In this document: in pieces, positions 1-15,521 of the stretch
Layout: the number at the start of each line of letters is the position of its first letter
Position numbering within the stretch: the stretch's first letter is position 1
DNA from: Fimbriimonadales bacterium
GTDB taxonomy: Bacteria; Armatimonadota; Fimbriimonadia; Fimbriimonadales; JABRVX01
DNA: 15,521 nt
Direction of reading: 5' to 3'
NCBI GenBank assembly: GCA_045862955.1
Contig: BTVI01000060.1
Location: 1-15,521, forward strand
The notes under the pieces: model-generated
Database searches by the model: none
The model's input: the letters and a program-made list of their open reading frames with translations, nothing else
What the model was told of the DNA's origin: nothing
Program-made: the position numbers and the translations under genes

Positions 1-621
1 AAGCATGCGACCGGACGCCGCTCCCTTCCGTGTTGGAGCGCCACGTTCCCACGCACACCCGACCCCGTCATGCTGAGCTTGTCGAAGCACGGGGTCGCTG
101 GCCGCAAGCCCTGCGCCTGCAGACGAATCCGTGCGTCGCTCAAGGTCATGCTTCGACAGGCTCAGCATGACGGTGTATGGGGGTTAGGCACAACCCGTGT
201 GCTTTCTTCTAGTGCCTCCAGAGCCCTCGGTCGGGGGCTCCACCTACGACAGGCTCAGCATGGCGGCACTTGGGCCAGGCAGGCGGCGCGGCCGCCTCTA
301 CCGCGATGGCTCCTGCAGGTGCGACCATCGTCACGGTCGTCATGCTGAGCTTGTCGAAGCATGCGACCGCTCGCCGCTCCCTTCCGTGTTGGAGCGCCAC
401 GCCCCCTCGCACACCCCGACCCCGTCATGCTGAGCTTGTCGAAGCACGGGGTGGCTGGCCGCAAGCTCTGCGCCTACAGACGGATCCGTGCGTCGTCCCA
501 GGTCATGCTTCGACAGGCTCAGCATGACGGTGTATGGGGGTTAGGCACAACCCGTGTGCTTTCTTCTGGTGCCTCCAGACCTCTCGGTCGGTGGCTCCAC
601 CTTCCAAGGGCTCGGCATGAC
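1..621. repeat. REP-like repeat field 1 (core GTCATGCTGAGCYTGTCGAAGCA) arranged as a ~357-bp tandem duplication
   Basis: Forward copies at 67-89, 339-361 and 424-446; reverse copies at 149-171 and 506-528; degenerate reverse copies near 242-264 and 599-621; partial copy at position 1. Segment 1-~264 recurs at 357-~621 (offset 356-357). The core can form a CATGCT/AGCATG stem. Confidence 0.9.
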
Positions 622-955
622 GGACGGGGACATCCAAGCGTGTCACGTGCCGCCTCTCGTCCGCGAAGAGCGAGCAAGGATACGAGACACTGCCACCCGC
701 CGTGGGCGCTGTTAGCTCTTCGTACACTCCCACTGCCCATGGAGCGCCGTGTCATCTGGTTACACGTTTTGCATGCGGCGCGTCAGGTCGATCCGCGCGC
801 GGTGAGAAGAGCCGTGGGGTGACAGTCTCTGGGGAGAACCCCGGTATCTGGTTGCGAGGGTTCTCACCGTCTGCGAACACCTGTAGCCTGTGTCCTTGTT
901 CCACACACCCTGTGAATGGGGACGGAGGAGTGTGCTCGTCTCTGGCGAGCCTCGC

Positions 956-1390
956 CTATTCGGGTGGGATGTAACCGATGGTGACGAAGGCGTTGGAGTA
1001 GATGCGTTGTTCCCCCGTTGCCACCGTTAGACAGAGTTGGCGCGAATCGATGGCCTCTCTCACCGCACCGTAGAACCCGAATCGGTCGTGCGGCGTAAAG
1101 GGCACATCCGGGCCGAGGATAGCTCGAAACTCGCTCACGATCGGTGGCGTGCTGCCGTCCGGCGGGACCACGTGCTCTAGCGCCTCGATGGGTACCACCT
1201 CGGCGATGAGATCCAGCACCTCGGTCACGGTGGGCTTGCCGGGGCTTAAGTTCAGGTAAACCAGCTTCCCGTTCGGCGGCGTGGCCATCGCGAACGGGTA
1301 GTTCAGGTCGGCGATGAGCACTTTCATGCCGTGCCCAGCTCCTGCGAGCGCAGCCAGGATTTCGGGATGTTGAAGGCGCGTTTTCAGCAT
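956..1390 (-). CDS. RbsD/FucU family protein (ribose pyranase / fucose mutarotase-like), 144 aa
   Basis: N-terminal MLK..LQHPEILAALAGAGHGMKVLIADLNYP and C-terminal TGEQRIYSN match the RbsD/FucU motifs; the length is typical. Confidence 0.88.
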   Translation of the reverse strand: MLKTRLQHPEILAALAGAGHGMKVLIADLNYPFAMATPPNGKLVYLNLSPGKPTVTEVLDLIAEVVPIEALEHVVPPDGSTPPIVSEFRAILGPDVPFTPHDRFGFYGAVREAIDSRQLCLTVATGEQRIYSNAFVTIGYIPPE

Positions 1391-1502
1391 GATTCTGGGT
1401 TCGGCTCCGCGGGACGCGCGTCCTCTCGGGGAGCGGCTTCGGGCTTTCGCGCAGAGATCGCAGAGCGGTAGCCGAGATTGCAGGGCGACCCACTGCCCTG
1501 CA

Positions 1503-1598
1503 CCCCCTCACCCCGGCCCTCTCCCCCGGCATCGGGGGCGAGGGAGGGTGCTGCCCCCTCACCCCGGCCCTCTCCCCCGGCAACGGGGGCGAGGGAGG
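1503..1598 (+). repeat. Two tandem copies (period 51) of a second palindromic repeat family, CCCCTCACCCCGGCCCTCTCCCCC..GGGGGCGAGGG (BoxC-like)
   Basis: 1503-1547 and 1554-1598 differ at one loop base. A related copy in the opposite orientation lies at 14758-14803. Confidence 0.85.
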
Positions 1599-1634
1599 CC
1601 GCATTGCGCTAGCACCACTGGGTAAGGTAGCCGC

Positions 1635-2825
1635 ATGAGCTTTCTGTTCCGCGAAAAGCTACGCCATCGTCTGCCCGAGCTAATGCGTCGTCATCAGATA
1701 GACTGCTGGCTGACGCTCACCCGCGAGCTCGCGCCAGACCCCATGGCCGACCTGCTAGGACTCTCCGGCGCGGGCGTGGCAGCCGGCGTCTTCGTGCAGG
1801 ATGGCGACAGGGTGCACGCCCTTGCGCTCGGGTCCGTGCTGGACGCGGCGTTGCTGAAGGAGTCCGGGGTCTACGATGAAGTGCGCTGCCCCTCCGAGCC
1901 GCTTCCTAAGGCGGTCGCGGACATCGCGAAGTCGTTCGGGGCACAGCGCGTGGCAGTCAACTCTGCGGAGCCTGCGCTAGCCGATGGGCTTTCGCACAAT
2001 CGCTACGTCGCCGTCGCCCAGGCACTGCGAGAGGTGGGGTTGCCGGAGCCATGCTCTAGCGTGGACATCATCACCGACCTGCGATGTACCAAATCGCCCG
2101 AAGAGATCGAAGCGCTGCGCGAGGCCGCCCGACTGAGCCACGAGCTGATGATGGAGGCGCTGTCCGCCAAGCACATCCAACCCGGTCGGACCACAGAGCG
2201 CGAGATCGCATCGCGACTGCTCTCGCGCGCCCGCGAAGAAGGCCTGACGCCTAGCTGGAGCCCCGCCTTCTGCCCCATCGTAAGTAGCGGCGAGACCCGA
2301 GAGCACGCCGCACCCTCGCCGACCGTGCGAGTGGAGCCTGGCCACATCGTGATCATAGACTTCGGGGTGAAGGTGCAGGGCTACGGCGCGGACCTCCAAC
2401 GCTGCGCCTACGTGGCTAAGCGAACCGAAGACAGCCCACCCGAGTGGGTGCTGCGGCTATTCGAGACCTGCCGCACCGGCATTGATATTGGTCTGGAGGC
2501 AGTGAGGCCCGGTGTGGTGGCCGGCGACGTGGACCGAGTCGTGCGCGAGTACGTCCTTTCGCAGGGTTATCCAGACTATCCGAACGCCACGGGGCACCCC
2601 ATCGGGCTAGTCGTACACGAGATCGGGCCGATGATCGCGCCGAAGAAGGAGGGGCGGACGGCACAGGCGCTCGAAGTCGGCCAGGTGTTCACGATGGAGC
2701 CGAGTGTGTACCGGAGCCTGGAGCATCCCGACCGGGTTCGAATCGGCTTGGAGGAAGACTTCGTGGTCACTGCCCGCGGCGCCGAGGTGCTATCCCCGCG
2801 CCAGACCGAACTGATCGTGCTGTAG
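1635..2825 (+). CDS. M24 family Xaa-Pro aminopeptidase / prolidase-like peptidase, 396 aa
   Basis: Pita-bread metal ligands are present in order: IIDFG, YGADLQR, GHPIG..VHE, TMEP, IGLEED. There is a creatinase/prolidase-like N-terminal region. Confidence 0.92.
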   Translation: MSFLFREKLRHRLPELMRRHQIDCWLTLTRELAPDPMADLLGLSGAGVAAGVFVQDGDRVHALALGSVLDAALLKESGVYDEVRCPSEPLPKAVADIAKSFGAQRVAVNSAEPALADGLSHNRYVAVAQALREVGLPEPCSSVDIITDLRCTKSPEEIEALREAARLSHELMMEALSAKHIQPGRTTEREIASRLLSRAREEGLTPSWSPAFCPIVSSGETREHAAPSPTVRVEPGHIVIIDFGVKVQGYGADLQRCAYVAKRTEDSPPEWVLRLFETCRTGIDIGLEAVRPGVVAGDVDRVVREYVLSQGYPDYPNATGHPIGLVVHEIGPMIAPKKEGRTAQALEVGQVFTMEPSVYRSLEHPDRVRIGLEEDFVVTARGAEVLSPRQTELIVL

Positions 2826-2885
2826 CTCGCCTGCTGTTGCCGCCCACGTGTGGGCCTGGAGTGGGCCGATTCTTGGCTCGTCTCG

Positions 2886-2891
2886 TATACT
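2886..2891 (+). promoter_or_regulatory. Putative -10 box TATACT for a leaderless dop transcript
   Basis: TATACT (5/6 match to TATAAT) ends 6 nt before the dop GTG at 2898. There is no clear Shine-Dalgarno and no -35 match. Confidence 0.45.
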
Positions 2892-2897
2892 TCGTAG

Positions 2898-4376
2898 GTG
2901 AAACGCTTGTTGGGTCTGGAAACAGAGTACGGTATCGCCGTCGAGGGGCGGGAGGTGCGCGACCAGGTGGAGGAGGCGGCAGAGTTGGTCCGCTCGTTCC
3001 CTGGTCCTTGCGTCCCCTCTTGGGACTACCGGTTCGAGGACCCCAGGCGAGACGCGCGTGGCTTTCGCGCCGAGCAACTGCGCACCGACCCCGTGGACTC
3101 CCAGTTCGACCGGCCTGGTACCCTGCCGGCAGAAGCGTTGCGCTGCGACCGCGTGTTGGCTAACGGCGCAAGGCTGTACAACGACCACGGTCATCCCGAG
3201 TACTCCACGCCAGAGTGCCTCTCGCTCGCGGACCTCGTCGCGCACGACCGGGCGGGCGAGAGGCTGCTGCTGCAGTGTGCCGAGGCCTACTCCGAACGAA
3301 CGGGCCGCAGGGTCCGCCTGTACAAGAACAACACGGATTTCCAGGGCGCAAGCTACGGCACCCATGAGAACTACCTGGGCCTACGGAGCGTGCCTTTCGA
3401 GCGGTACGCTGAGGCGCTGCTCGCCTTTCTGCCCACCCGCATCGTGTACACCGGCTCGGGGAGAGCGGGCTCGGACAGGCAACGCGAACCGGCGTTCCGA
3501 CTCTCCCAGCGCGCCGAGTTTTTCGCCGAGCCGATCGGAATCGACACTCTTTATCGCCGGCCCATTGTAAACACCCGGGACGAGCCTCATGCCGACCCGA
3601 ACCGATGGCGACGCATTCACGTGATCGCAGGCGACGCCAACATGCAGCCCTTCGCCACCGCCCTCAAGGTGGGCGCCACGAGCCTGGTGCTAGAGCTCGT
3701 GGAGGAGGGCTGGGAATGCCCGATGAGACTTGCGGACCCTGTACGGGCCATGGAGAGAATCTCGCGTGACGAAACCTACCGCTGGAACGTAGAACTGGCG
3801 GAGGGGAGCATCGTGGGTGCTGTCGCAGTGCAGCGCGAGTTTCTGTCGGCAGCAGCCGAGCGATTCGGCGGACGGGATGCCCAAACCGACTGGGTTCTGG
3901 GCGAGTGGGAACGGACGCTAGGGATGTTGGAAGAGGACCCGCTGCTCCTGGCCGACCGCCTGGACTGGCCCGCGAAGCTTGCTCTACTGCGGACCTTCAT
4001 GGAAGCAGAAGGCGTGGAGTGGGGTTCGGACCGGGTAGTCGCCGCAGACCTGGAGTATCATAACTTGGACCCCGAAGAGGGGCTCTTCTGGGTCCTAGAC
4101 ACCGAGCAAATGGTGTCCGAGGAGCGGGTTGCCGAGGCTGCACAGCGCCCTCCGGTGGACACGCGGGCTGCCCTTCGAGGGCGGTGCGTTCGGCGATTCG
4201 GGGAGGCGGTGCGCGAAGTCAGCTGGAGCGGCATGACGCTGGACGACGGAGCACAATCCAAGCGGCTGGACCTCAGCCGCATGGTCGGGGAGGTCCCGCG
4301 AGAGCTGGTCGATGCGGTCGAAGGCGCGGAGTCGTTGGAGGAATTTTTGCGGATAGCATCGGGGAGTGCGAAATGA
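2898..4376 (+). CDS. dop: Dop/PafA2-type deamidase/depupylase of the Pup-like system, 492 aa
   Basis: GLETEYG, Dop-loop WDYRFEDPRRDARGF, NGARLYNDHGHPEYSTPEC, KNNTD..GASYGTHENY, RPIVNTRDEPHAD, RIHVIAGDAN, DLEYH. It lies immediately upstream of the modifier gene. Confidence 0.92.
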   Translation: MKRLLGLETEYGIAVEGREVRDQVEEAAELVRSFPGPCVPSWDYRFEDPRRDARGFRAEQLRTDPVDSQFDRPGTLPAEALRCDRVLANGARLYNDHGHPEYSTPECLSLADLVAHDRAGERLLLQCAEAYSERTGRRVRLYKNNTDFQGASYGTHENYLGLRSVPFERYAEALLAFLPTRIVYTGSGRAGSDRQREPAFRLSQRAEFFAEPIGIDTLYRRPIVNTRDEPHADPNRWRRIHVIAGDANMQPFATALKVGATSLVLELVEEGWECPMRLADPVRAMERISRDETYRWNVELAEGSIVGAVAVQREFLSAAAERFGGRDAQTDWVLGEWERTLGMLEEDPLLLADRLDWPAKLALLRTFMEAEGVEWGSDRVVAADLEYHNLDPEEGLFWVLDTEQMVSEERVAEAAQRPPVDTRAALRGRCVRRFGEAVREVSWSGMTLDDGAQSKRLDLSRMVGEVPRELVDAVEGAESLEEFLRIASGSAK

Positions 4377-4561
4377 CAGTATTGGGACAGGAGCGCAGGA
4401 CGATACCCAAGCCGTTCGAGCGCACCACTAAGCCGGACGAAGGGGACGGCCCGAGCAAGCCGGACGTGCGCAGACCGGGCGGCTCGGACGAGCTGCTGAA
4501 GCGGTTGCGCAAGATCGACCCCGACCAAGCGAAGCGGTATCGGCAGCGAAGCGGCGAGTGA
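4373..4561 (+). CDS. ubact: UBact-type prokaryotic ubiquitin-like modifier, 62 aa (MTVLGQERR...AKRYRQRSGE)
   Basis: ATG at 4373 overlaps the dop stop (ATGA), with GGGGAG upstream. The sequence is low-complexity and charged, and ends in RQRSGE, matching the UBact R[ST]G[EQ] tail. It occupies the pup position between dop and prcB. The ORF track start at 4184 is an over-extension. Confidence 0.9.
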   Translation: MTVLGQERRTIPKPFERTTKPDEGDGPSKPDVRRPGGSDELLKRLRKIDPDQAKRYRQRSGE

Positions 4562-5331
4562 ACGGCGACTTCCACGAACTGCTCAAGAGTGAGGGCAGGC
4601 TGCCGGAGTTCCACAGGTTCGTCGGCCCCGCGGCGCCCGAGGAGATTCACGGCACCACCGTGCTCGCGATGCGCTATAAGGATGGCGTGCTGAACCTGGG
4701 TGACCGGAGGGCCACCACCGCCAACCTCGTGATGTACGACCGGGCCGAGAAGATCCTGCCGCTGGACGACTTTACGCTGATTGCGGTCGCGGGCGCGTTC
4801 GGCAAGGCGATGGAAGTGGTGCGCTATCTTCAGCACTCGTTCAAGTACTTCGCTCGCACGCAGCTACACCAGATCAGCCTGGAAGGGAAGCTGCAGGAAG
4901 TGAGCCGAGCCCTCGCGGGCAACCTACCGAACGCCTTGCAGGGCATCGGCTTGTTTATCCCCGTGCTAAGCGCGTGGGACGAGCGGGAGAATGCCGGGCG
5001 CATCTTCTTTTACGACGGGTCGGGTGCGCGTTTCGAGTCGGGAGATTTCGGAGCCGCTGGTTCGGGCTCGGAGCGCATCCGCGGGGCGTTTCACTACATC
5101 GAACGCGTGAAGGGGCCGTTCCACGAGCGCCCCTTCGACGAGGTGCTGGCCGATGGCCTTCGCCTGCTGGACATAGCCGCAGAGCTGGATAGCGCAACCG
5201 CGGGCTACGCCAAGATCCTGCCGACTGCCAAGACCGTCGGACCCGAGGGAGTGCGCGAGGTGAGCGAGGAGACCTTGCGGGCTGCCATCGAAAGCTTGGA
5301 CCAACCGGCGAAGGGAAGGAAGCGAGCGTGA
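4558..5331 (+). CDS. prcB: 20S proteasome beta subunit, 257 aa, with a 32-aa propeptide
   Basis: HG|TTVLA autoprocessing site; mature Thr1, Asp17 (GDRRAT) and Lys33 are present, plus GSGS. GTG overlaps the ubact stop (GTGA). Confidence 0.93.
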   Translation: MNGDFHELLKSEGRLPEFHRFVGPAAPEEIHGTTVLAMRYKDGVLNLGDRRATTANLVMYDRAEKILPLDDFTLIAVAGAFGKAMEVVRYLQHSFKYFARTQLHQISLEGKLQEVSRALAGNLPNALQGIGLFIPVLSAWDERENAGRIFFYDGSGARFESGDFGAAGSGSERIRGAFHYIERVKGPFHERPFDEVLADGLRLLDIAAELDSATAGYAKILPTAKTVGPEGVREVSEETLRAAIESLDQPAKGRKRA

Positions 5332-6080
5332 TCACGCCCTACGATTGGCAACAGAGCATCGCGCAGCGGGCGCAGTACGTGGAGGGCAGGCTGCAGGGCG
5401 GTAGCCCGGTGGTCGGCCTGAGCTGCCGCCAAGGCGTGTTGCTCGCTACGGTCCGGGCCGGCGTTCGAAAGGTGTTCGAGGTGTACGACCGGTTGATATG
5501 TGCGGGTATCGGGAGCCAAGCCGATCTGGAGGCAGTGCGCCTGCGGGCGATAGACTTCGCGCACACGGAAGGCTTCGTGCGTAGCGAAGACGACGTCACA
5601 GTACAGCGTGTGGTCGGGTTCGCTCTCAGCCCAACGCTCAAGCGCGCTTTCGCCGACCCCATGACCGCACCTTTCGTCGCGCGAACCGTCTTCGCCGAGA
5701 TGGGAGACAGTCAGGAGCGTGACAGTTTCTATGTGCTGAACTTCGACGGGGAATACACCCCCTATTCCGGCAGCGTGATCATTGCGGGCTCGCGCGCGGG
5801 TGAGGAGGCGGGACGGATCTTTTTGGCCGAGAGCGAGGTCGCAGATAGTCCGGACCAGGCAGCGCGCACCGCGCTATTAGCCTGGGCGGCGGCAAGGCTC
5901 GCTCAAGAGGACTCGGACAAGAGCTCCCCAACCCGGGAGGATTCGGCTGCTCGACTTCGGAGCGAGCTGGAAAACGCGACACCCGAGGTCGGCTGGCTGG
6001 AGCGCGACACCCCGCGCCAGAGCAAGTTCTCCCTGTGGAGCCGCGAGCGGATCGAGCAGGCGCTCGGCGATCTGAAGTGA
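5328..6080 (+). CDS. prcA: 20S proteasome alpha subunit, 250 aa
   Basis: ITPYDW..R..YVE..L..GSPVV, RKVFEVYDR, GIGSQADLE, G..RSEDDVT, typical of bacterial PrcA. GTGA overlap with prcB. Confidence 0.9.
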   Translation: MITPYDWQQSIAQRAQYVEGRLQGGSPVVGLSCRQGVLLATVRAGVRKVFEVYDRLICAGIGSQADLEAVRLRAIDFAHTEGFVRSEDDVTVQRVVGFALSPTLKRAFADPMTAPFVARTVFAEMGDSQERDSFYVLNFDGEYTPYSGSVIIAGSRAGEEAGRIFLAESEVADSPDQAARTALLAWAAARLAQEDSDKSSPTREDSAARLRSELENATPEVGWLERDTPRQSKFSLWSRERIEQALGDLK

Positions 6081-7585
6081 GCCTCGGCAAGCGCGTCTAC
6101 GGCGTGGAGACGGAGTACGGCTGTCTCCTTCGCGACGATAACCTCGACGGCATCGAGCACGTCGTGGACTGTGTCAAGAACCACATCTTCTACCACTGCA
6201 AGCTCGGCGCGATCGACGTACTCGCGCGCAACGAGGCGTTCGAGCCCTCGCGAGCGGGTGGGTTCCTGCTGAACGGTGGCCGGCTGTATGTGGATGCAGT
6301 GGGCAGCCATCAGGAGTACGCTACGCCGGAGTGCTCGAGTCTGCGCGACCTGATCGCCTATGACCGCGCAGGGCATCTGCTCCTCTTGCGTGCGCTGCAA
6401 GAACTGGGATGGGAGGACCGGGTCTCCTTCTATGCTAACAGCGTGGACCACTTCGGGGGTCACACCTTCGGCTGCCACGAGAACTATCTGGTTACTATGG
6501 GAGAAGACTTCTTCGGCGAGCCGCTGCAGTCGCTGTTCCCGTTCTTGGTCACGCGTCAGATCTTCGCGGGCGTCGGTCGAGTGGGAGGCCACATCCTGGA
6601 TCGCACGAGGGTGGTGCTGGACCCTCGCACGGTCATGGAGAACCCCATAGACTACGTTTGGGTGCCCAATGTGTACAACGTACTGCCGGACGATAGCGTG
6701 CAGTATCAGCTGTCGCAGCGTGCCGATCACATCATTCGCGCGGCTGCCACGCGTGTCCGTTTCAACCGCGCCATCGTCAACCCCAAGTGGGACGATTTCT
6801 ACAGCTTCAACACGATGGGTCGCCTGCATCTGCTGTTCGGCGAAGCGAATATGTCCGAATACGCCTATGCGCTGAAGATCGGCACGACGTCGCTGGTGCT
6901 GGACCTGATAGAAGACGACGCGGTGCCCGAGGGTCTCGGCTTCGACACCGAGTCGGCGTGCATCCGCGCCCTCCACACCGTGTCGCGAGATGCCACGTGG
7001 AAGTGGCTGGTGGAGTTAGGGAATGGGACAGTGATAGGTGCGGTGGATTTGCAGCGGATGTATCTTGCCGCCGCGCAATCCCTGTATCGTGGCAGGGACC
7101 CGGAGACCGACTGGGTGCTAACAGAGTGGGAAAGCACTCTCGACGGGCTAGAGAAGGACCCCATGTCGTTGGGGGATCGTTTGGATTGGGTGGCAAAGCG
7201 ACAAGTGCTAGAGGCCTTCATGGCAGATGCAGGCGTGGGATGGGAAGACGACTCGCTGCACTCCGTGGACATGGAGTATCACAACATCGACCCGCGCAAT
7301 GGGCTCTACCACTACTTGCAGTCGAGTGGCAAGATGCGACGGCTGTGCAGCGACTTGCAGATTCTGGACGCGGTGACGGAACCGCCCGAGGGCACGCGTG
7401 CTCGTGGCCGTGGAATGGTCGTTCGGGAGATCGTAGCGCGACGGGTACACCGCTACTGGATCGACTGGGACATGGTGGCAGTGGACGGAGGCAAGCAGCT
7501 CGCCTTCCGTGACCCGCTGAAGACCTATCACCGTGAGGCCGAGACTTTCATCTCCTACCTCCCCAACCGGCGTGGGAAGGCGTAG
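6077..7585 (+). CDS. pafA: PafA-type modifier-protein ligase, about 502 aa
   Basis: GVETEYG, NGGRLYVDAVGSHQEYATPEC, FGCHENY, SQRADHI, LKIGTT, DWVAK, DMEYHNI, TRARGRG, DWD, DP; no Dop-loop. The likely start is GTG 6077, overlapping the prcA stop, rather than 6035. Confidence 0.9.
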   Translation: MSLGKRVYGVETEYGCLLRDDNLDGIEHVVDCVKNHIFYHCKLGAIDVLARNEAFEPSRAGGFLLNGGRLYVDAVGSHQEYATPECSSLRDLIAYDRAGHLLLLRALQELGWEDRVSFYANSVDHFGGHTFGCHENYLVTMGEDFFGEPLQSLFPFLVTRQIFAGVGRVGGHILDRTRVVLDPRTVMENPIDYVWVPNVYNVLPDDSVQYQLSQRADHIIRAAATRVRFNRAIVNPKWDDFYSFNTMGRLHLLFGEANMSEYAYALKIGTTSLVLDLIEDDAVPEGLGFDTESACIRALHTVSRDATWKWLVELGNGTVIGAVDLQRMYLAAAQSLYRGRDPETDWVLTEWESTLDGLEKDPMSLGDRLDWVAKRQVLEAFMADAGVGWEDDSLHSVDMEYHNIDPRNGLYHYLQSSGKMRRLCSDLQILDAVTEPPEGTRARGRGMVVREIVARRVHRYWIDWDMVAVDGGKQLAFRDPLKTYHREAETFISYLPNRRGKA

Positions 7586-7652
7586 CGGTTCTGGATCCTC
7601 CGCCTGCTCGGGAGTGGCGTCGGTAGGCATGTCAGGTTGAATGATAGCGGTT

Positions 7653-7989
7653 CCATGCCTAGACGTTTTCCTGTGCCTCACCACTCGCAGAGGATGGGGC
7701 ACTGGTGACGTCATGCTGAGCCTGTCGAAGCATGGGTTTCGCCATGCCTAGACGTTTTCCTGTGCCTTACCACTCGCAGAGGATGGGGCACTGGTGACGT
7801 CATGCTGAGCCTGTCGAAGCATGGGACCGCCGGCCGTACCTTTCCATGCCTAGACGTTTCGGCTGTCGTCTGCCGCCACGCTCTCGCCCGGTGACCCCCC
7901 CAGCAGTCGAACGTCGAGGTACCCAGCCGTCTCCATGCCCTGGCCCGCGTCCGCCAAGCGAGTGCATGCTTCGACAAGCTCAGCATGAC
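7653..7989. repeat. REP-like repeat field 2, between the convergent pafA and xerD genes
   Basis: Core copies forward at 7710-7732 and 7799-7821, reverse at 7967-7989. An 89-bp tandem unit starts at 7653 and 7742. 7752-7923 is an inverted copy of 14103-14274. Confidence 0.9.
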
Positions 7990-8084
7990 GGGAACCCCTA
8001 CCGCACCGCTTGCCGCGTAACGCCACGGCTGAACCTGCGTCTCGAGCAGCACGCTGCGTGGCACACAGCCGGCAAGCATGTGGT

Positions 8085-8990
8085 TCACCCCCTCGGGTGG
8101 CAGCGACGGTGAATCTCGCGCAACCGCTCGTTGGTCACGTGCGTGTATATCTGCGTGGTAGATATGTCTGCGTGACCCAGAAGCTCCTGCACCACACGCA
8201 GGTCGGCCCCGCCAGAGAGCAGGTGTACGGCGAACGAGTGACGCATGGAGTGCGGGCCAAGCCGCTTGGTGATACCCGCAGCATGGGCATGCTCGCGCAG
8301 CAAACGCCATAGCCCCGAACGACTCAGCGGTGCCCCGCGCGTGTTGAGAAACAGCGCCGCAGTCGGGCGCTTGCCGACGAGCGCGGGCCGTCCGTCCTCG
8401 AGGTAGCGCTGCAGCCACGCTTCGGCTGCACGACCGTAGGGCACGATACGCTCCTTGCCTCTCTTGCCGGTGACACGTATGAGCGGCTCCGGCTGCGTCA
8501 CGTCCTCGACAGTTAGTCCTAACAACTCGCTGACCCGTAGACCCGTCGCGAATAGCAGCTCCAGCATGCAGCGGTCCCGCAATCCGAGGGGCGTAGTGGT
8601 GTCCGGCTGAGCTAACAACGAGTGGATCTCTGCAAGCGAAAGGTATGACGGAAGCCGACGATGCAAGCGACGCCCACTCTCGGTCTTCATGGGGGGCTCC
8701 TCCAAGTCGCCGTGCCGATACAAGAAACGCAGAAACGCTCGCACCGCACACACCTTCCTTGCGATGGAAGTTTCCCCCAGCCCTTCCTTGCGCAGAGCAT
8801 GCGAGAAGCTCTCGATCGTCGCGGCATGGTGCAACCGCTCGAATCGAATCTGCGCGGAGCGACACAGTGCCAGAAAACGCTGTGTGTCTCGCGCATAGGC
8901 CGCTACCGTGTTGGGACTCGCTCGGCGCTCGCGCTCTAGGTGCAGCAGGAACCGATCCCGCAGCGCTTCTAAGGTGTCTTCCGCTTCCAT
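8085..8990 (-). CDS. xerD: Tyrosine recombinase XerD-like, 301 aa
   Basis: SPNTVAAYARD N-terminal domain, ELLFATGLRVSEL, GKRGKERIVP, PHSMRHSFA, GADLRVVQELLGHADISTTQIYTHV, terminal HPRG. The R-K-H-R-H-Y catalytic set is complete. Confidence 0.88.
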   Translation of the reverse strand: MEAEDTLEALRDRFLLHLERERRASPNTVAAYARDTQRFLALCRSAQIRFERLHHAATIESFSHALRKEGLGETSIARKVCAVRAFLRFLYRHGDLEEPPMKTESGRRLHRRLPSYLSLAEIHSLLAQPDTTTPLGLRDRCMLELLFATGLRVSELLGLTVEDVTQPEPLIRVTGKRGKERIVPYGRAAEAWLQRYLEDGRPALVGKRPTAALFLNTRGAPLSRSGLWRLLREHAHAAGITKRLGPHSMRHSFAVHLLSGGADLRVVQELLGHADISTTQIYTHVTNERLREIHRRCHPRG

Positions 8991-10594
8991 ATCACGATGT
9001 GCGGTGAGATGTATTGCATGTCATGAGACATCTGCCCACGATATCCCAGGCTCTTGACCACCTCGTAGCGCTCCTTCAGCAGCGCCGTGGTGTCCACGAA
9101 CCCCGGCAGCCGCACCCGCTCGGCGTCCACGTACTCGAAGGAGGAATAGACCACGTACTCGGGGTGCAGTGCAGTGATCAACCTGGGGTCCCACTCGGTC
9201 AGTGTGCCCCCTTCACCCAGGTAGTAGAGTAGCCGGTACTCCGTTACCTCCTCCATGCGCTGCAGGCGATACCTCGCACCCGCTTCCCCGAATCCTGCCC
9301 CCGTCTCAGGGAAAAGCGGCGGGGTGTAGTACCACGGGGGAGTGGGGAACCCGATCGATGCTCCCTTGGCGTTCGTTGCAAGCCACCTCGCCGCTGCATC
9401 CCTCGGGTCCTCACGCAACATCAGTTCCGTCACTACGGCGGCGTTGTTGCCGAAAGTGGCACCAAAGACTAACACGGCGGCGGCTACCGCGGCAGGGCGA
9501 CTTGCTAGCAGGCTCTCCCGCATGCCTGCTGCTACGGCGCACCCGGCTAGGACGCACAGTGGTGGACCGAGCGGCAAGACGTACCGCAAGAACTTGACTT
9601 CGACCGACCCGATGAGTACGTAGTAGGGAACAGCGAAGGCGAGCAACACCCACACCGCGGTTCGCTTCTGTCTGATTGCCAAGACCAGCCCTACCAACGC
9701 CATAGCTGGCACCACTAGCCCGAACGCCTCGACCATGTTGCCGAGATGATACACCCATCCCGGCGCCGTGGAAGCGAACACGAGTCCATGGCCTTCCTTC
9801 ACGTGCCGCATCTCGAACAATACGTCGCGCAGGAACTGCTCGGATGCGAGAATCGCGCCCGGCGTGGTCACCAGGAATGCAACCACGCAGCTGATCAACC
9901 CCAGCACGGCGTACATCGCTTTGCGCTGGCCCGGCATGGAGCGCAGCATCAGCGCAAGTAGTGGGCACAGGAGCACGAGCACCATGTTGTACTTCACGGC
10001 TGCCGCCAAACCAGCCATAGCACAGCCCCACAACGCAAAGCGGACCGCCCGTCGGAGCTCTTCTTCCTGGAGCCCTTTCACTGCTAACAGCATGGCGCAT
10101 GCGACGAAGAACGTGGCAGGCACGTCCACCGTATGAAACCGAGAGTGCACCACGTGTCCGGGTGCCACCAGGAGCAGCAGTGCCGCCGTGATGCCCGCCG
10201 CCGGCCGCCACACCCGAGCTCCGATAAGGTAACACAGCGACACCGTGGCAGCACCCATGCCCGCCGATACCACACGACATCCGAGCTGTATCACGGCCAC
10301 CGAACCCTCCGGAGCGAGCCCCCATCCGGTTAGAAAAACCGACACGAGGTGCATCACGTACAACCATAGGGAGCCATAGTTGTAGAAGCCGGGGTTCCAC
10401 ACACCGTGTGGTAGGTCCAGGCTACCCACCGCGTACACGAGTAGCAGGTACTCGTCAGGGTGGTAAGACTGATGGTGCAGCTCGTTCGGTAGGCCCCATC
10501 CGATACCTAGCAGCCGCAGTAAGAAGGCGAGGACTCCGGCCGCAATCGGGATCAGCCACTGCGGCACCCGCCTGCGCTCAGTATCGGCCGGCAT
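8969..10594 (-). CDS. GT-C fold membrane glycosyltransferase (ArnT/PMT, family 39/83-like), 541 aa
   Basis: First TM followed by WGLP...SYHPDE acidic loop, many hydrophobic segments, HSRFHTVDVP, GLAAAVKY, RYVLP, and a soluble C-terminal domain. Overlaps xerD by 22 nt and the upstream gene by 17 nt. Confidence 0.85.
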   Translation of the reverse strand: MPADTERRRVPQWLIPIAAGVLAFLLRLLGIGWGLPNELHHQSYHPDEYLLLVYAVGSLDLPHGVWNPGFYNYGSLWLYVMHLVSVFLTGWGLAPEGSVAVIQLGCRVVSAGMGAATVSLCYLIGARVWRPAAGITAALLLLVAPGHVVHSRFHTVDVPATFFVACAMLLAVKGLQEEELRRAVRFALWGCAMAGLAAAVKYNMVLVLLCPLLALMLRSMPGQRKAMYAVLGLISCVVAFLVTTPGAILASEQFLRDVLFEMRHVKEGHGLVFASTAPGWVYHLGNMVEAFGLVVPAMALVGLVLAIRQKRTAVWVLLAFAVPYYVLIGSVEVKFLRYVLPLGPPLCVLAGCAVAAGMRESLLASRPAAVAAAVLVFGATFGNNAAVVTELMLREDPRDAAARWLATNAKGASIGFPTPPWYYTPPLFPETGAGFGEAGARYRLQRMEEVTEYRLLYYLGEGGTLTEWDPRLITALHPEYVVYSSFEYVDAERVRLPGFVDTTALLKERYEVVKSLGYRGQMSHDMQYISPHIVIWKRKTP

Positions 10595-11264
10595 GCGTCC
10601 CCGTCCGCACTGGCTCCTCTTCCAGGCCGAACGGCCCCTCCAGTTCCAAGAGCAGGTCTACCACCATCGGATCGAACTGCGTCCCGCGTCGCTCGGCAAG
10701 TCGCTCGATCGCGCGCTCTTGGCCATACTGCGCTGCAGTCTCCCCGAACTCGGCGGCCGCAGCCAGTATCCTGGCCTCGATGGGTATCGCGATCGCCTTG
10801 GGTAGGTGCGGCCCTTTGCTCCCATCCCACCACGCATCGAGGTCTCGCACCAGAGTTGACACTGAGCGCAGCGATGGGATCAGCGCTACCATTCCGGCCC
10901 CGCGTTCCGTGTGCGTGTCATAGGTGGCTTGCTCCGCAGGTGTCCGCTCTTCGGGGGGCGTGTTGATGATGGAGTAGGGGATCGCGGTGAGGCCCAGATC
11001 GCGAAGGTACGCTGCCATCTCGAGACGTATCAGCTTGCGACGTGACAACTTCAGACGGTGGCCGATCGCTAGTGCCAACGCCGCGATATCCTCGGATCGT
11101 CCCAGTCGGTGGTTGGCGCGACACTCTACTGCGTGCGACACAGCGCGAAGACTGTCTCGCAGCCGGCGTCTGGCCTCCCGCGGAAGGCTCCAAAAAGCAC
11201 TGTAACACAGCCAGCCCGTCACCAAGATGGAGATGATTAGGCTGAGATATACTGGCCAGGTCAT
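10578..11264 (-). CDS. One-TM HD-GYP-like protein with degenerate active site, about 228 aa
   Basis: ATG at 11264 overlaps the upstream stop (ATGA), with GAGGGGG upstream. N-terminal TM WPVYLSLIISILVTGWLCY. The HD-GYP scaffold is retained (IPIEARILA, GTQFDP), but HD is RD, HHE is DLD, GYP is KGP and the final D is A. Confidence 0.8.
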   Translation of the reverse strand: MTWPVYLSLIISILVTGWLCYSAFWSLPREARRRLRDSLRAVSHAVECRANHRLGRSEDIAALALAIGHRLKLSRRKLIRLEMAAYLRDLGLTAIPYSIINTPPEERTPAEQATYDTHTERGAGMVALIPSLRSVSTLVRDLDAWWDGSKGPHLPKAIAIPIEARILAAAAEFGETAAQYGQERAIERLAERRGTQFDPMVVDLLLELEGPFGLEEEPVRTGTHAGRY

Positions 11265-12544
11265 GCCGCCCCCTCTTCTGCTAGCGTGGCAGCGAACTCC
11301 TCCACCACGCGCGCATCGAACTGGGTGCCAGCGCACCGGCGCAGCTCCTCCAGGGCTTCCTGGGGCGTCAAGGACTTACGATACGGTCGCTGCTCTCCTG
11401 GTCTATCACCTCCTACCATCGCATCGTAGGCATCCACGACGGCGATGATCTTCGCTTGAATGGGGATCTCGGCATCGTGCAACCCGCTCGGATAGCCTTT
11501 TCCGTCCGGACGCTCGTGATGGGCACGTATCCACGGCACGATCGGCTCTAGTAACTGGATTCGAGCGAGGATTTCGGCACCGACTTCGGTATGCTTGCGT
11601 ACCGCCTGCCACTGCTCCTCGTTCAGAGGTCCGGGGAAGTTCAGGATCGCCTCATCCACCGCGATCTTGCCCACGTCGTGCAGTAGGGCAGCGTCTTGCA
11701 TCAGGTCCACGTCGCTCGCCGGCAGGCCCAATCGTTCCGCAGTCCTCACCGCTCGGTGCGCTACGCGATCTAGGTGCCCGCCGGTGTAAGGGTGGGCTCT
11801 CTGAATCATCAGGCCGAGCGCACGAATGGTTTCCCGATAATCGCGCTCGTAGCGAGCGCGCAGCTGGAAGCACTGCCAAGCCGCCCACATGGGTAGCAAG
11901 AACAGAGCTGACACCCAGACGCGCTGTGTGGCTGCAAGGTGCATTACCAGAATGGCTAACAGCGCATAGAGCAAGTACTGGTAGCCAATCACTCGCCGCT
12001 TCTCGTCCAGCTTCGCCGTCACGCTCGAGCCCGACAGCGCGGCTTCCATCGAGGCGACGATGAGCGAGTTGAGAACGATGTAGACTAGGGTGGCGACCAG
12101 AGCCGCCACGACGAGCGCGAGCCCGTTGGAGAGCAGGGATCGGGTCGAGACCGCAGCCAATCCCGCCGCGCATGCACACATGGCGGCCTGCGAGCAGTTG
12201 AAAAGCAGCCACATCCAGCGCCGGCGTGACCGCGACCGCACAGTTCGAGTTGCGCCTGCCGCGACCGTACCGAGCACGTCCATCAGACCGGCAACCGCTG
12301 GACCGTAGAGAACCGCCACCGCCGCCACCACGGGCAGCGACACGCTCACCTGCACGCCGCGCTCGCCGATGGGGATCGTCAGCCACTCGGACAGCACGAA
12401 CATCGTGGCGAACACGATCAACGGTCCCCATTCGATGCTTTGCGGGGGTGACAGGACCCAGCTCGTCGTGAACAACACCGCGCCGAGCAGGCCGGAAGTC
12501 CAGATGAGACGTTGTAAGGCGGCCGAGAGGCTTCCCGATGACAA
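11261..12544 (-). CDS. Membrane-sensor HD-GYP phosphodiesterase (putative c-di-GMP PDE), 427 aa
   Basis: About 225 aa of hydrophobic N-terminus (roughly 6-7 TM by eye), then HPYTGGH, LLHDVGKI, HHERPDGKGYP, IIAVVDAYDAM, RPYR, GTQFD. TTG start with GGAG 7 nt upstream. Confidence 0.9.
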   Translation of the reverse strand: MSSGSLSAALQRLIWTSGLLGAVLFTTSWVLSPPQSIEWGPLIVFATMFVLSEWLTIPIGERGVQVSVSLPVVAAVAVLYGPAVAGLMDVLGTVAAGATRTVRSRSRRRWMWLLFNCSQAAMCACAAGLAAVSTRSLLSNGLALVVAALVATLVYIVLNSLIVASMEAALSGSSVTAKLDEKRRVIGYQYLLYALLAILVMHLAATQRVWVSALFLLPMWAAWQCFQLRARYERDYRETIRALGLMIQRAHPYTGGHLDRVAHRAVRTAERLGLPASDVDLMQDAALLHDVGKIAVDEAILNFPGPLNEEQWQAVRKHTEVGAEILARIQLLEPIVPWIRAHHERPDGKGYPSGLHDAEIPIQAKIIAVVDAYDAMVGGDRPGEQRPYRKSLTPQEALEELRRCAGTQFDARVVEEFAATLAEEGAA

Positions 12545-12595
12545 TGCAGGGCTCCGAACTCCCCTAGTTGGGCATTCGCGGGGGAGGGCGCAGGG

Positions 12596-12612
12596 GGCAG
12601 GTGGCTCCTGCC
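12596..12612 (-). other. Stem-loop immediately after the small peptide ORF (no U-tract)
   Basis: GGCAGG-AGCCA-CCTGCC on the minus strand, a 6-bp stem starting 1 nt after the TAG stop. Confidence 0.45.
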
Positions 12613-12613
12613 T

Positions 12614-12739
12614 CTACCGTTGTCCACCCATTACGGGCGGAGCGGACACGTCGAGGTCGTCCGGGGGATAGATGGTGAACTTAGCCCCCAACAGGGCCGA
12701 CAGCGCCGCGAGCAGCGCTAGGATCTGAGCCCAGAACAT
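12614..12739 (-). CDS. Small 41-aa peptide, putative secreted/signalling precursor: MFWAQILALLAALSALLGAKFTIYPPDDLDVSAPPVMGGQR
   Basis: Translated by hand; not listed in the ORF track. ATG at 12739 with GAAGGGGG 8 nt upstream, TAG at 12614-12616, GC-rich third positions, co-oriented with both neighbours, hydrophobic residues 2-17. Confidence 0.72.
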   Translation of the reverse strand: MFWAQILALLAALSALLGAKFTIYPPDDLDVSAPPVMGGQR

Positions 12740-12840
12740 AAGCGGTACCCCCTTCGAATTGGGTTAGTGAGGTCTCCGCTCTGTTTCCGCTTCGCTTCGC
12801 GCCCGTCGCCCCGCGAATTCGATTACCGGGATCTCAATTG

Positions 12841-13551
12841 TCAAATCGTGACCCGCTCGGGAGGCTCCGCCTCCACGGCTTCGTCCGCTTCCTCGCTCGC
12901 TTCCGTGGGAAGCCGCTCGAGCCGCCGGTTCAGCGCATCCAGTGTAGCATGTACGACGGCTCGATGAACATCGCCGTCTTGAACTAACGCCGATCCTGTG
13001 AGAACTTCCTCCGGCCCGCAACTCACCAAACTCAGTGCGACAACCGCCACCTGCCGCCCGCCCAACGTCACGTTCGTCGTCAAGTCTTGAAGCGCGAAGC
13101 GGTCTGGCAAGCCGCAGGCGCGCTCCACCACGTCAATCGTCGCCTCGCTGAGGATGCGCAACAGGTTGAAACTGGAACGCTGTCCCTCGGCCGTACCGGT
13201 AAACATCCTCCCGTGCCGCTCCACTTGAACCGCTGCGCGCGCCCGGCGGCCCTCCTGCCAGTGACTCACCTCCACCAGCTTCAGCCTGCCGCGCAGATAC
13301 GAGCGTTCTTCTACCTGGGCGACGCTGATGGTCTTGTGGTCGACCTGAAGCCCGAACCTAGCCTGGAGGGCGGACTCGATGTCCCTCACCACTTGCTTGG
13401 GCGTACGGTCGCCTTCCGTTAGGGCGTGAATCTCGCGCACGCCGTTTTTCGCGTCCACGATGACCCGCGCCGACACCACGCTCCTCAGCTGAGCGAGGGC
13501 CTGCTCTAGTTGTGAAGCGGTCCAGACAGTCGCCATCTGTCTCTCATTCAC
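12841..13551 (-). CDS. Hypothetical protein with a C-terminal LeuA (isopropylmalate synthase) regulatory-domain-like region, about 236 aa
   Basis: AAVQVERHGRMFTGTAEG and LTGSALVQDGDVHRAVVHATLDALNR resemble the two halves of the LeuA allosteric domain (by eye). The N-terminal domain is EIHALTEGDRTPKQVVRDIESAL. Start is uncertain: GTG 13551 (GAGG 6 nt upstream) or ATG 13536; ATG 13575 falls inside the predicted -10 box. Confidence 0.75.
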   Translation of the reverse strand: MNERQMATVWTASQLEQALAQLRSVVSARVIVDAKNGVREIHALTEGDRTPKQVVRDIESALQARFGLQVDHKTISVAQVEERSYLRGRLKLVEVSHWQEGRRARAAVQVERHGRMFTGTAEGQRSSFNLLRILSEATIDVVERACGLPDRFALQDLTTNVTLGGRQVAVVALSLVSCGPEEVLTGSALVQDGDVHRAVVHATLDALNRRLERLPTEASEEADEAVEAEPPERVTI

Positions 13552-13573
13552 CCGCATCCTCAACAGTAAACAC

Positions 13574-13602
13574 ATACTATCACATTCGAGCGTTCACCGC
13601 AA
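13574..13602 (-). promoter_or_regulatory. Putative sigma70 promoter TTGCGG-N17-TAGTAT with extended -10 TGn
   Basis: On the minus strand: -35 at 13602-13597, 17-nt spacer ending in TGA, -10 at 13579-13574. It lies in a locally AT-rich patch heading the minus-strand gene block. Confidence 0.55.
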
Positions 13603-13686
13603 GATTGCCAGTGAAAGTTTGCTGCGATTCGATAAGTTCTGTCGCCTATGGTCGAGCGGGACTCTCCTCCAACGCGGCTCAGCCCG

Positions 13687-13710
13687 GGTTCCCGCCTTCG
13701 CGGGAATGTC
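13687..13710 (-). repeat. Single copy of a third palindromic element, GACATTCCCGCGAAGGCGGGAACC
   Basis: 7-bp stem TTCCCGC/GCGGGAA (13689-13706). It resembles the widespread GTCATTCCCGCGAAGGCGGGAATCC REP-type motif. Only one copy in the window. Confidence 0.6.
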
Positions 13711-13746
13711 ACCACGGATACAGGAGTCTCTTGGTAACTGTCTCGT

Positions 13747-15521
13747 ATGCCCCGGCCCGCGTCCGCCGGCTAGCAGCCACCGACGGCATGGTTCGACCCT
13801 AAGGACCGCGCCGGGGCAGGGTCGCGGGCGGCAGCAGGCGCATGCTTCGACAGGCTCAGCATGACGGCTGCGGGTCGCTGTTTTCTCTATGCCCCGGCCC
13901 GCGTCCGCCGCTTGGCAGCCACCGACGGCATGGTTCGACCCTAAGGACCGCGCCGGGGCAGGGTCGGGACGGCAGCAGGCGCATGCTTCGACCGGCTCAG
14001 CATGAAGTTTGGGCGAGTGGTGCGATGGGTGTATATGAGGTGGGTAGCGTGGTGGGGGGGGGGGGTGGGGGGGGGGGCCCCCATCACCAGCCTCTGACCT
14101 CGGGTGCCTCGACGTTCGGCTGCTCGGGGAGTCGCCGGGTGAGAGCGTGGCAGCAGACGGCAGCCGAAACGTCTCGGCATGGAAACGTGTGGGCGGCGGT
14201 CCCATGCTTCGACAGGCTCAGCATGACGTCACCAGTGCCCCATCCTCTGCGAGTGGTGAGGCACAGGAAAACGTGCGGTCGGCGGTCCCATGCTTCGACA
14301 GGCTCAGCATGACGTCACCAGTGCTCCATCCTCTGCGAGCGGTGAGGGCACACAACATGCCCTTTGCCGCGTCATGCTGAGCTTGTCGAAGCATGCCCCC
14401 GCCCCCAGCACGCTACCGACCTCGGATACTACCATCGCGGCAAGTGCCGTAACGTCATGCTGAGCTTGTCGAAGCATGCGCCTGCTGCCGCCCGCGGCCC
14501 TGCCCCGGCGCGGTCCTTAGGGTCGAACCATGCCGTCGGTGGCTGCCAAGCGGCGGACGCGGGCCGGGGCATAGAACTACCATCGCGGCAAGTGCCGTAA
14601 CGTCATGCTGAGCCTGTCGAAGCATGCGCCTGCTGCCGCCCGCGACCCTGCCCCGGCGCGGTCCTTAGGCACGAGCCATGCCGTCGGTGGCTGCTAGCCG
14701 GCGGACGCGGGCCGGGGCATATACACACGTGCTCGCGGGCCGGGGCATGGAATCGCCCCTCCCTCTCCCCCGTTCGCGGGGGAGAGGGTTGGGGTGAGGG
14801 GGGCCATCACCAGTCGCTGGCGTTCGGTGCCTCGACGTTCGGCTGCTAGGTGGGTCGCTGGGCGAGAGCGTGGCGGCAGACGACAGCCGAAACGTCTAGG
14901 CATGGAAACGTGCGGTCAGCGGTCCCATGCTTCGACAGGCTCAGCATGGCGTCGCTAGTGACTCATGCTTTGCAGCTGGTTAGAGATATGAAAGTGGTGA
15001 GGGCACACAACATGCCCTTTGCCGCGTCATGCTGAGCTTGTCGAAGCATGACCCCGCCCCCAGCACGCTACCGACCTCATATACTACCATCGCGGCAAGT
15101 GCCGTAACGTCATGCTGAGCCTGTCGAAGCATGCGCCTGCTGCCGTCCCGACCCTGCCCCGGCGCGGTCCTTCGGGTCGAACCATGCCGTCGGTGGCTGC
15201 CAAGCGGCGGACGCGGGCCGGGGCATAGAGAAAACAGCGACCCGCAGCCGTCATGCTGAGCCTGTCGAAGCATGCGCCTGCTATCGTCCCGACCCTGCCC
15301 CGGCGCGGTCCTTAGGCACGAGCCATGCCGTCGGTGGCTGCTAGCCGGCGGACGCGGGCCGGGGCATAGATAAAACAGCGACCCGCAGCCGTCATGCTGA
15401 GCCTGTCGAAGCATGCGCCTGCTGCCGCCCGCGACCCTGCCCCGGCGCGGTCCTTAGGCACGAGCCATGCCGTCGGTGGCTGCCAAGCGGCTGACGCGGG
15501 CCGGGGCATAGAGAAAACAGC
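13747..15521. repeat. REP-like repeat field 3: mosaic of 141-bp units and other modules, running off the window end
   Basis: Core copies reverse at 13843, 13984, 14205, 14291 and 14928; forward at 14371, 14454, 14602, 15026, 15109, 15250 and 15391. Period 141 at 15109/15250/15391 and 13843/13984; period 86 at 14205/14291; 14341-~14574 recurs at offset 655. Confidence 0.92.
14758..14803 (-). repeat. BoxC-like palindromic repeat, same family as 1503-1598
   Basis: 12-bp perfect stem CCCTCTCCCCCG-TTCG-CGGGGGAGAGGG followed by TTGGGGTGAGGGGGG. Confidence 0.8.

Follow-up and report, generated by a model that had tools for sequence, protein, structure and literature searches.

A conserved small peptide encoded within a folded RNA beside a membrane-bound HD-GYP gene: a candidate peptide input to c-di-GMP turnover in Fimbriimonadales

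The DNA considered here is a stretch of 15,521 nucleotides (nt) from a Fimbriimonadales bacterium (phylum Armatimonadota; assembly GCA_045862955.1, contig BTVI01000060.1, positions 1 to 15,521), referred to throughout as the window. The source genome is 97.6% complete, and the nearest named relatives of the central gene, C, are Fimbriimonadales (Armatimonadota) records. The minus strand carries a compact module made up of a soluble protein (A), a small peptide (B) whose open reading frame (ORF) lies inside a folded RNA, and two HD-GYP proteins (C and D), of which the first is a predicted cyclic di-GMP (c-di-GMP) phosphodiesterase. The features of the module and its immediate surroundings are as follows.

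12841-13551, minus strand: gene A, read from GTG or alternatively from ATG at 13536; soluble protein of two domains
12572-12828, minus strand: folded RNA containing the peptide ORF; outer limits taken from the ends of contigs from RNA runs; fold z -2.2
12799-12818, minus strand: 5' arm of the closing helix P1
12777-12800, minus strand: repeated AGCG boxes (AGCG-R-AGCG ... AGCG), from alignment and box count
12614-12739, minus strand: peptide B ORF, 41 amino acids (aa), with a 19-residue hydrophobic leader ending G-A, a core K-F-T-I-Y-P-P and a variable tail
12574-12591, minus strand: 3' arm of the closing helix P1
11261-12544, minus strand: gene C, 427 aa, with an eight-helix MASE9-like membrane domain and an intact HD-GYP domain of the binuclear type
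10578-11264, minus strand: gene D, 228 aa, with one membrane helix and a degenerate HD-GYP domain
8969-10594, minus strand: gene E, a PMT-type membrane glycosyltransferase (Pfam PMT, E 1e-9)
13574-13602, minus strand: promoter-like site seen by eye (-35 TTGCGG, N17, extended -10 TG-n-TAGTAT)

An earlier sequence-only reading of this DNA had described a stand-alone regulatory-domain-like (LeuA-like) protein, an uncalled 41-aa peptide with a strong ribosome site, a multi-helix membrane protein with an intact HD-GYP site 69 nt downstream of the peptide, and a degenerate HD-GYP protein abutting it. All four genes stand: fold searches agree with the first description, the peptide is conserved in relatives, the catalytic motifs of C are present and those of D are mostly lost. 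The folded RNA and the fifth, overlapping gene E had been overlooked.

The peptide ORF is preceded by a G-rich ribosome site (12748-12754), and homologues with a start codon and a ribosome site are found at the same position in relatives. Scored with a profile hidden Markov model (HMM), the window peptide, itself among the model's 19 seeds, reaches 55.7 bits against a maximum of 7.5 in opposite-strand control windows. Since the homologues lie in the same place and the control scores are low, the peptide is more than a chance ORF. The model missed divergent amphipathic peptides that are true members (scores of -0.6 to 5.9), so HMM absences are soft, and the set of 72 peptide loci includes 11 added by hand. 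The sequence-only reading had proposed a search of related genomes for the small ORF and the gene order, and both are there: among the 30 best gene-A loci, the MASE9-like membrane HD-GYP gene comes next in all 30, with the peptide ORF in 29 and an AGCG box in 29. Upstream of 23 long proteins (692-871 aa) that share the membrane domain, no peptide scores above 3.3 bits. No second copy of the peptide was found in the genome by tblastn, and no Pfam or NCBIfam model, peptide models included, matches it.

Across the family, the peptides share a layout of a 19-21-residue leader ending in G-A, S-A or G-C, four to six variable residues and an aromatic-Pro pair; those of Atribacterota, Aerophobetes and Clostridia are shorter and end in W or WG. 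In family f4, codon differences in the core amount to 318 synonymous versus 121 non-synonymous over 91 pairs of loci that are kin and not independent, compared with 328 versus 311 in the leader and 201 versus 471 in the tail. The core of 11 f18 loci, also kin, gives 206 versus 0. Judged by these codon differences, the core that follows the leader is the most constrained part of the peptide and is under purifying selection. Two variant forms deserve mention. In 3 of 33 loci from families f2 and f5, a leaderless ORF with a start codon and a purine-rich upstream run keeps K-L-[ST]-I-Y-P directly before C, a motif with a background of 5 in 788 windows drawn from the same loci; the remaining f2/f5 loci keep C, mostly together with D, and the peptide was not found in them. 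In family f32 (L009, L135, L136, L167, L169, L170), amphipathic leaders are followed by G-C-x5-aromatic-P, giving these peptides an AgrD-like look. Separately, tandemly duplicated peptide genes stand before the membrane HD-GYP gene in some Aerophobetes and Clostridia (L032:3702-3901, L013 near 3800-3978 and L027:1-185). Contigs from five RNA runs (X2, X6, X14, X16, X19) carry a C>A change at 12698, a third codon position of the peptide that is probably a strain variant.

The peptide ORF is enclosed by the arms of helix P1, which vary in sequence between lineages. In an RNAalifold analysis of 16 sequences, P1 shows two-sided changes in 10 of 14 pairs, and in the window the cognate arms score 39, compared with a mean of 23.1 and a maximum of 35 for non-cognate arms. 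Upstream of the peptide, the box R-AGCG-R-AG is present in 65 of the 72 loci and on the opposite strand in none of the 72; AGCG occurs 268 times versus 63 in shuffles, often in hairpin loops. A search of Rfam, c-di-GMP riboswitches included, gave no match at gathering level, the three weak matches in 10000-15521 having E values of 0.93 or worse. Contigs from 8 of 24 listed RNA runs bear on the RNA itself. For six of the eight, from six studies, a contig ends at 12572-12584, at or beside the 3' arm of P1; the spans include 12578-12809 (X7), 12579-12808 (X6), 12578-12824 (X16), 12580-12804 (X19, with an adapter-like loose end) and 12572-12828 (X14). As the contigs carry neither strand nor level and have no DNA-run comparison beside them, they are a weak hint of a discrete RNA of 225-260 nt that carries the peptide ORF. 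They leave most of A, C and D uncovered and were not used to rank the genes. About 30 nt separate the 3' arm from the start of C. The arm has no U run behind it, which makes processing seem likelier than intrinsic termination; RNase III is encoded in the same genome.

Turning to gene A, its AlphaFold2 model has a predicted local distance difference test score (pLDDT) of 82. The C-terminal domain has the fold of LeuA/CimA regulatory domains (Foldseek E 5e-6; VIA Z 10.6, root-mean-square deviation (rmsd) 3.0, 109 residues aligned), while the N-terminal domain is a small alpha/beta unit resembling BolA and the C-terminal domains of CDF proteins (Z 7-9). Above cut-off, A matches nothing in Pfam or NCBIfam, and its matches in the ESM Atlas are unnamed clusters only. 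Of 251 Armatimonadota genomes, 66 match a profile of A with an E value of 1e-15 or below, some of them through the C-terminal domain only. The fold matches include double-stranded RNA-binding domains (dsRBDs), a likeness common to LeuA regulatory domains. None of the 30 genomes from families f2 and f5 gave a match to A, while 2 of 2 controls did, and the AGCG box is absent from all 33 loci, which include three duplicates and about four that are not orthologues. Gene A was likewise not found in five of five Aerophobetes and Clostridia genomes, a search with no positive control and in genomes of unestablished completeness, and the box is absent from the three of their loci tested. This joint loss suggests A as a candidate binder of the AGCG-box RNA. 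A relocation of A and the peptide to other sites in the f2 and f5 genomes found no support in these searches.

Weak matches to the A profile in proteins of 440-590 aa were considered as LeuA and set aside, those inspected being CBS-GGDEF proteins with a LeuA-like tail. One such protein is encoded in the same genome as the window (L255:1812-3197); it has the order CBS-CBS-GGDEF with an intact GGDEF motif and a C-terminal tail resembling a LeuA regulatory domain, and it matches the A profile at E 3e-8. A similar protein, CBS and GGDEF by Pfam, occurs in L143. The genome has six GGDEF matches in all, and the L255 protein is a possible partner of A that would link it to c-di-GMP synthesis.

The membrane domain of C gives no Pfam match to MASE9 (PF20972), while 10 of 24 aligned orthologues do (E up to 1, best 2.5e-11). 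Eight helices precede the HD-GYP domain, and N116, Y155 and N159 are conserved, in keeping with the available part of the MASE9 description, which gives eight membrane segments, two of them short, and conserved Asn/Ser and aromatic residues. According to that same part of the source, MASE9 was defined on TM1467 and HdgA, has no known ligand and may bind one within the membrane (10.1101/2021.11.05.467447). The model of C (pLDDT 87) places residues 6-211 in the six-helix fold, with its L1 lid, of the S-components of energy-coupling factor (ECF) transporters, with NikM (Z 14.6, rmsd 3.4, 188 aligned), CbiM (Z 13.3, rmsd 4.2, 178), RibU (Z 13.1, rmsd 3.2, 160) and FolT (Z 11.7) as matches, against a background in which unrelated membrane proteins reach Z 8.6 at most and a helical bundle may score about 13 through chance alone. 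In solitary FolT, loops L1, L3 and L5 are outside, and L1 and L3 cap the pocket near the outer face, as given in the accessible text of its description (PMC4820897). In C, the same loops have mean Lys+Arg counts of 1.43, 3.04 and 2.86 over 106 relatives, versus 0.48, 0.08, 0.86 and 0.44 for the alternate loops. Because of this excess, L1, L3 and L5 would lie inside; eight helices before a cytoplasmic enzyme agree, so the fold appears inverted relative to ECF transporters, whose L1, L3 and L5 are outside. The S-component-like pocket of C and its lid loops are thus predicted to face the cytoplasm, and E53, N116, Y155 and N159, which are polar and conserved, are located toward this predicted side.

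The enzyme domain of C keeps all metal ligands together with the GYP and RPYR motifs (H257, H289-D290, K293, H318, H342-H343-E344, G350-Y351-P352, D371 and R386-x-Y-R389); the KPG motif reads FPG in this genome. A Tyr stands at the E185 position; in the available text of the MASE9 paper this residue goes, though not in every case, with a two-metal site at which hydrolysis stops at pGpG (10.1101/2021.11.05.467447). C is assigned to the binuclear type on this basis and is predicted to be a c-di-GMP phosphodiesterase that makes pGpG. Its neighbor D is 27% identical to C, and the ATG of D overlaps the stop codon of C (ATGA). In D the first metal His, the His of HD, HHE, GYP and RxxK are all gone, and a single hydrophobic helix stands at the N-terminus. 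Most Armatimonadota loci have a partner of this type after C, the most degraded ones being those of Fimbriimonadales. In five loci (L134, L138, L166, L168, L184), the partner is instead a second full MASE9-type protein, as HdgB is, with a DUF5317-like gene next in L184. DUF5317 itself follows C in L012 and L013 by Pfam, and similar-looking genes follow C in other Aerophobetes and Atribacterota loci.

Complex modeling of the peptide with the membrane protein, which the sequence-only reading had proposed, gave a score of 0.57 for C plus peptide, where no control exceeded 0.00; at least 74% of the contacts recur between runs, and the partner pLDDT is 53 or more. Of 157 solved pairs, 116 reach the mark used, as do 2 of 215 mismatched ones; since the score falls at or below 0.60, where 18 solved pairs and both mismatches lie, it argues weakly for contact. 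The reading that we favor, tentatively and as something short of probable, is that the peptide is an internal ligand or subunit of C made from a folded mini-mRNA, and that A likely gates its supply. A, the peptide, C and D, to judge by their layout, are probably co-transcribed. Helix P1 would then be cut, RNase III being the presumed agent, or would mark a stop, leaving a stable peptide mRNA of 225-260 nt. Protein A, if its joint loss with the box is a guide, probably binds the AGCG boxes beside the ribosome site of the peptide and adjusts how much peptide is made; the cue may be an amino-acid-like molecule bound by the LeuA-type domain of A. The leader of the peptide likely rests in the inner membrane face, from where the G-A-x(4-6)-aromatic-P core may dock in the S-component-like pocket under the L1 beta-hairpin. 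Binding from the cytoplasmic side would set the predicted c-di-GMP breakdown by C, which, probably paired with its dead copy D, would convert c-di-GMP to pGpG, as the Tyr at the E185 position predicts.

Several observations weigh against this reading. The cognate pair of P1 arms beats all non-cognate pairs in only 39 of the 72 loci. Beyond the limits of the RNA contigs given above, X2 starts at 12584 and continues into gene A, X3 offers only an inner piece of 151 nt, and X9 has none there among the pieces listed. The joint loss of A and box represents at most two independent events, and the genome holds 46 loose box-like strings. The sidedness of C rests on charge counts and on an assumed helix-for-helix correspondence drawn from aligned ranges and not from coordinates, and the complex score, in its weak range, comes with no contacts given. 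At least 12 Fimbriimonadaceae-type loci have intact C and D with no detectable peptide, which makes it dispensable, and the three leaderless ORFs seem to come from a single clade, where they may be remnants. Finally, the leaders carry a small residue at -3 in 47 of 61 cases (counted by eye), which fits signal peptidase I, an enzyme that favors small residues at -3 and -1.

This last point belongs to a quorum-type reading, rather unlikely in our estimate, in which a signal peptide is cut after G-A or S-A and the released core reaches C either from outside or, as Phr and SHP peptides do, after re-import. The near-fixed leader length of 19-21 residues, the frequent Lys or Arg at the N-terminus and the frequent A-x-A end are all in its favor, as is a core that varies between lineages and is fixed within them like a pherotype; a separate stable mini-mRNA would permit overproduction. 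The peptide of the window, however, carries Leu at -3 and no basic N-region, and others have Tyr, Phe, Asn or Gln at -3. The amphipathic and leaderless variants and the predicted inward-facing pocket also speak against this reading. A search of the same genome found no AgrB (0 matches, with a weak control that matched in 1 of 14 genomes and below cut-off), no C39 peptidase (0 matches, with a control matching 7 of 14 genomes) and no DUF5317. The sequence-only reading had the peptide either exported or membrane-inserted and read by the membrane domain. On this evidence an exported signal read from outside is not supported, export followed by re-import keeps a modest chance, and a membrane-inserted peptide fits better.

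Leader-ORF control offers an alternative without any binding to C: translation of the peptide would open or keep P1 and so set the processing or translation of C and D. It is an unlikely explanation, though P1 does enclose the ORF, the RNA contigs do stop at the 3' arm, and in three loci (L209, L213, L216) that arm overlaps the purine run before the start of C. Many cores, moreover, end in aromatic-Pro-Pro, a possible ribosome stall site. In the window, however, the 3' arm stops short of the start of C and lacks a following U run, as described above, and short members end in W, WG or WP, with no PP. Some loci with a weak or missing helix and box still have a peptide (L012, L015, L032 and the leaderless loci), and the complex model, which passes weakly, is a further point for contact with C. 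The last alternative, that an abundant RNA is itself the main agent, its many boxes acting as a sponge or scaffold for A while the peptide has an additional role, is improbable: the AGCG excess, often in hairpin loops, the loss of box and A together and the dsRBD matches of A speak for it, but RNA binding by A is only putative, the dsRBD likeness is general among LeuA regulatory domains, and the selection on the peptide core and its linkage to C would go unexplained.

Extending the favored reading of an internal ligand or subunit beyond this genome gives a bolder picture that we hold to be speculative and, taken whole, rather doubtful. An inverted vitamin-transporter fold would serve as the receptor for a peptide of the cell's own making in a widespread second-messenger circuit, with the peptide drawn from an excised mini-mRNA gated by an RNA-binding, amino-acid-sensing protein A. 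The lineage-specific cores would then serve as private codes. Some lineages would send them from cell to cell by export and re-import, and others would have short-circuited them to a leaderless form that stays inside.

Around the module, the sequence-only reading had placed one promoter at the head of the four co-oriented genes. The promoter-like site at 13574-13602 is visible by eye, while a consensus promoter scan of 8000-14200 returned no sites. Among eight relatives shown, the site is identical in the same-genus relative L082 and similar in L083 and L091, so it is a plausible, if unproven, promoter of the operon even though the scan missed it. A TTGACA at 12839-12844 overlaps the end of gene A, and similar words occur in L119, L166 and L174; it is a possible internal promoter element, with no -10 found at the usual spacing. 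Gene E overlaps D by 17 nt and is a frequent but not universal neighbor, its type following C-D in 9 of the 11 first loci and giving no match in 20 of the 30 loci L081-L110, where the reach was 1.5 kb past C. Downstream, a XerD-like tyrosine recombinase gene (8085-8990, minus strand) starts with a 22-nt overlap with the end of the glycosyltransferase gene. On the plus strand, 2898-7585 holds a UBact-type proteasome cluster of two Pup-ligase-family genes, a UBact gene (4373-4561) and two proteasome subunit genes. Many copies of one short repeat element lie at about 1-900, 7600-8000 and 13650-15521; it recurs as spurious ORFs in several frames and looks like a REP-type or miniature mobile repeat.

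The sequence-only reading knew of no characterized system with this arrangement, and a literature search, with subscription journals and bioRxiv supplements outside its coverage, turned up no account of the peptide, the RNA or gene A; a single paper in it treats MASE9 as a sensor domain. The nearest enzymes are TM1467 and HdgA with the degenerate HdgB, which share an eight-segment membrane domain joined to HD-GYP and a degenerate HD-GYP gene next door in a likely operon, to go by the available text of both sources (10.1101/2021.11.05.467447; PMC6205966); D differs from HdgB, which has six membrane helices, in having a single one. The main text of the MASE9 paper never uses the word 'peptide', and its accessible part mentions no small ORF, RNA or gene A (10.1101/2021.11.05.467447). 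In Streptomyces, HdgA and HdgB are membrane-bound and likely co-transcribed, and in the portion available the hdgA and hdgB mutants have no developmental phenotype, for which the authors blame a missing activating signal (PMC6205966). The ECF S-components NikM, CbiM, RibU and FolT share the helical fold of C, including the extra first helix of NikM, whereas C is fused to an enzyme, predicted to be inverted and only 10-15% identical to them, and a fold alone shows no function. In C. difficile, small membrane-associated proteins under riboswitch control act downstream of c-di-GMP on sporulation, according to the part of the report available (PMC13724677). What is alike is that an RNA element connects small membrane-associated proteins with c-di-GMP; here no riboswitch matches, and the two are compared by description and not by homology.

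Agr-type and Phr/SHP quorum sensing also place a short precursor gene beside its receptor. They resemble the present peptides in having a leader and a lineage-specific core, and family f32, with its amphipathic leader and G-C-x5-aromatic-P, resembles AgrD; the differences are the lack of an AgrB or C39 match in this genome and a receptor, C, that is an HD-GYP protein and neither a histidine kinase nor an RRNPP protein. A further parallel is MgrB-PhoQ, in which a tiny membrane-associated protein acts on a membrane sensor. Here the output would be c-di-GMP hydrolysis, the peptide gene lies in a folded RNA, and leaderless forms occur. We regard the module as real and as a form of small-protein control of a membrane sensor that is undescribed in the literature searched. 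For the MASE9 sensors, which have no known ligand, the analysis names a candidate ligand, a fold and a sidedness for the binding site, along with a discrete RNA that would supply the peptide and a candidate regulator in A. If this is true, peptide input would be wired directly to c-di-GMP turnover and would give a first handle on an orphan sensor domain.

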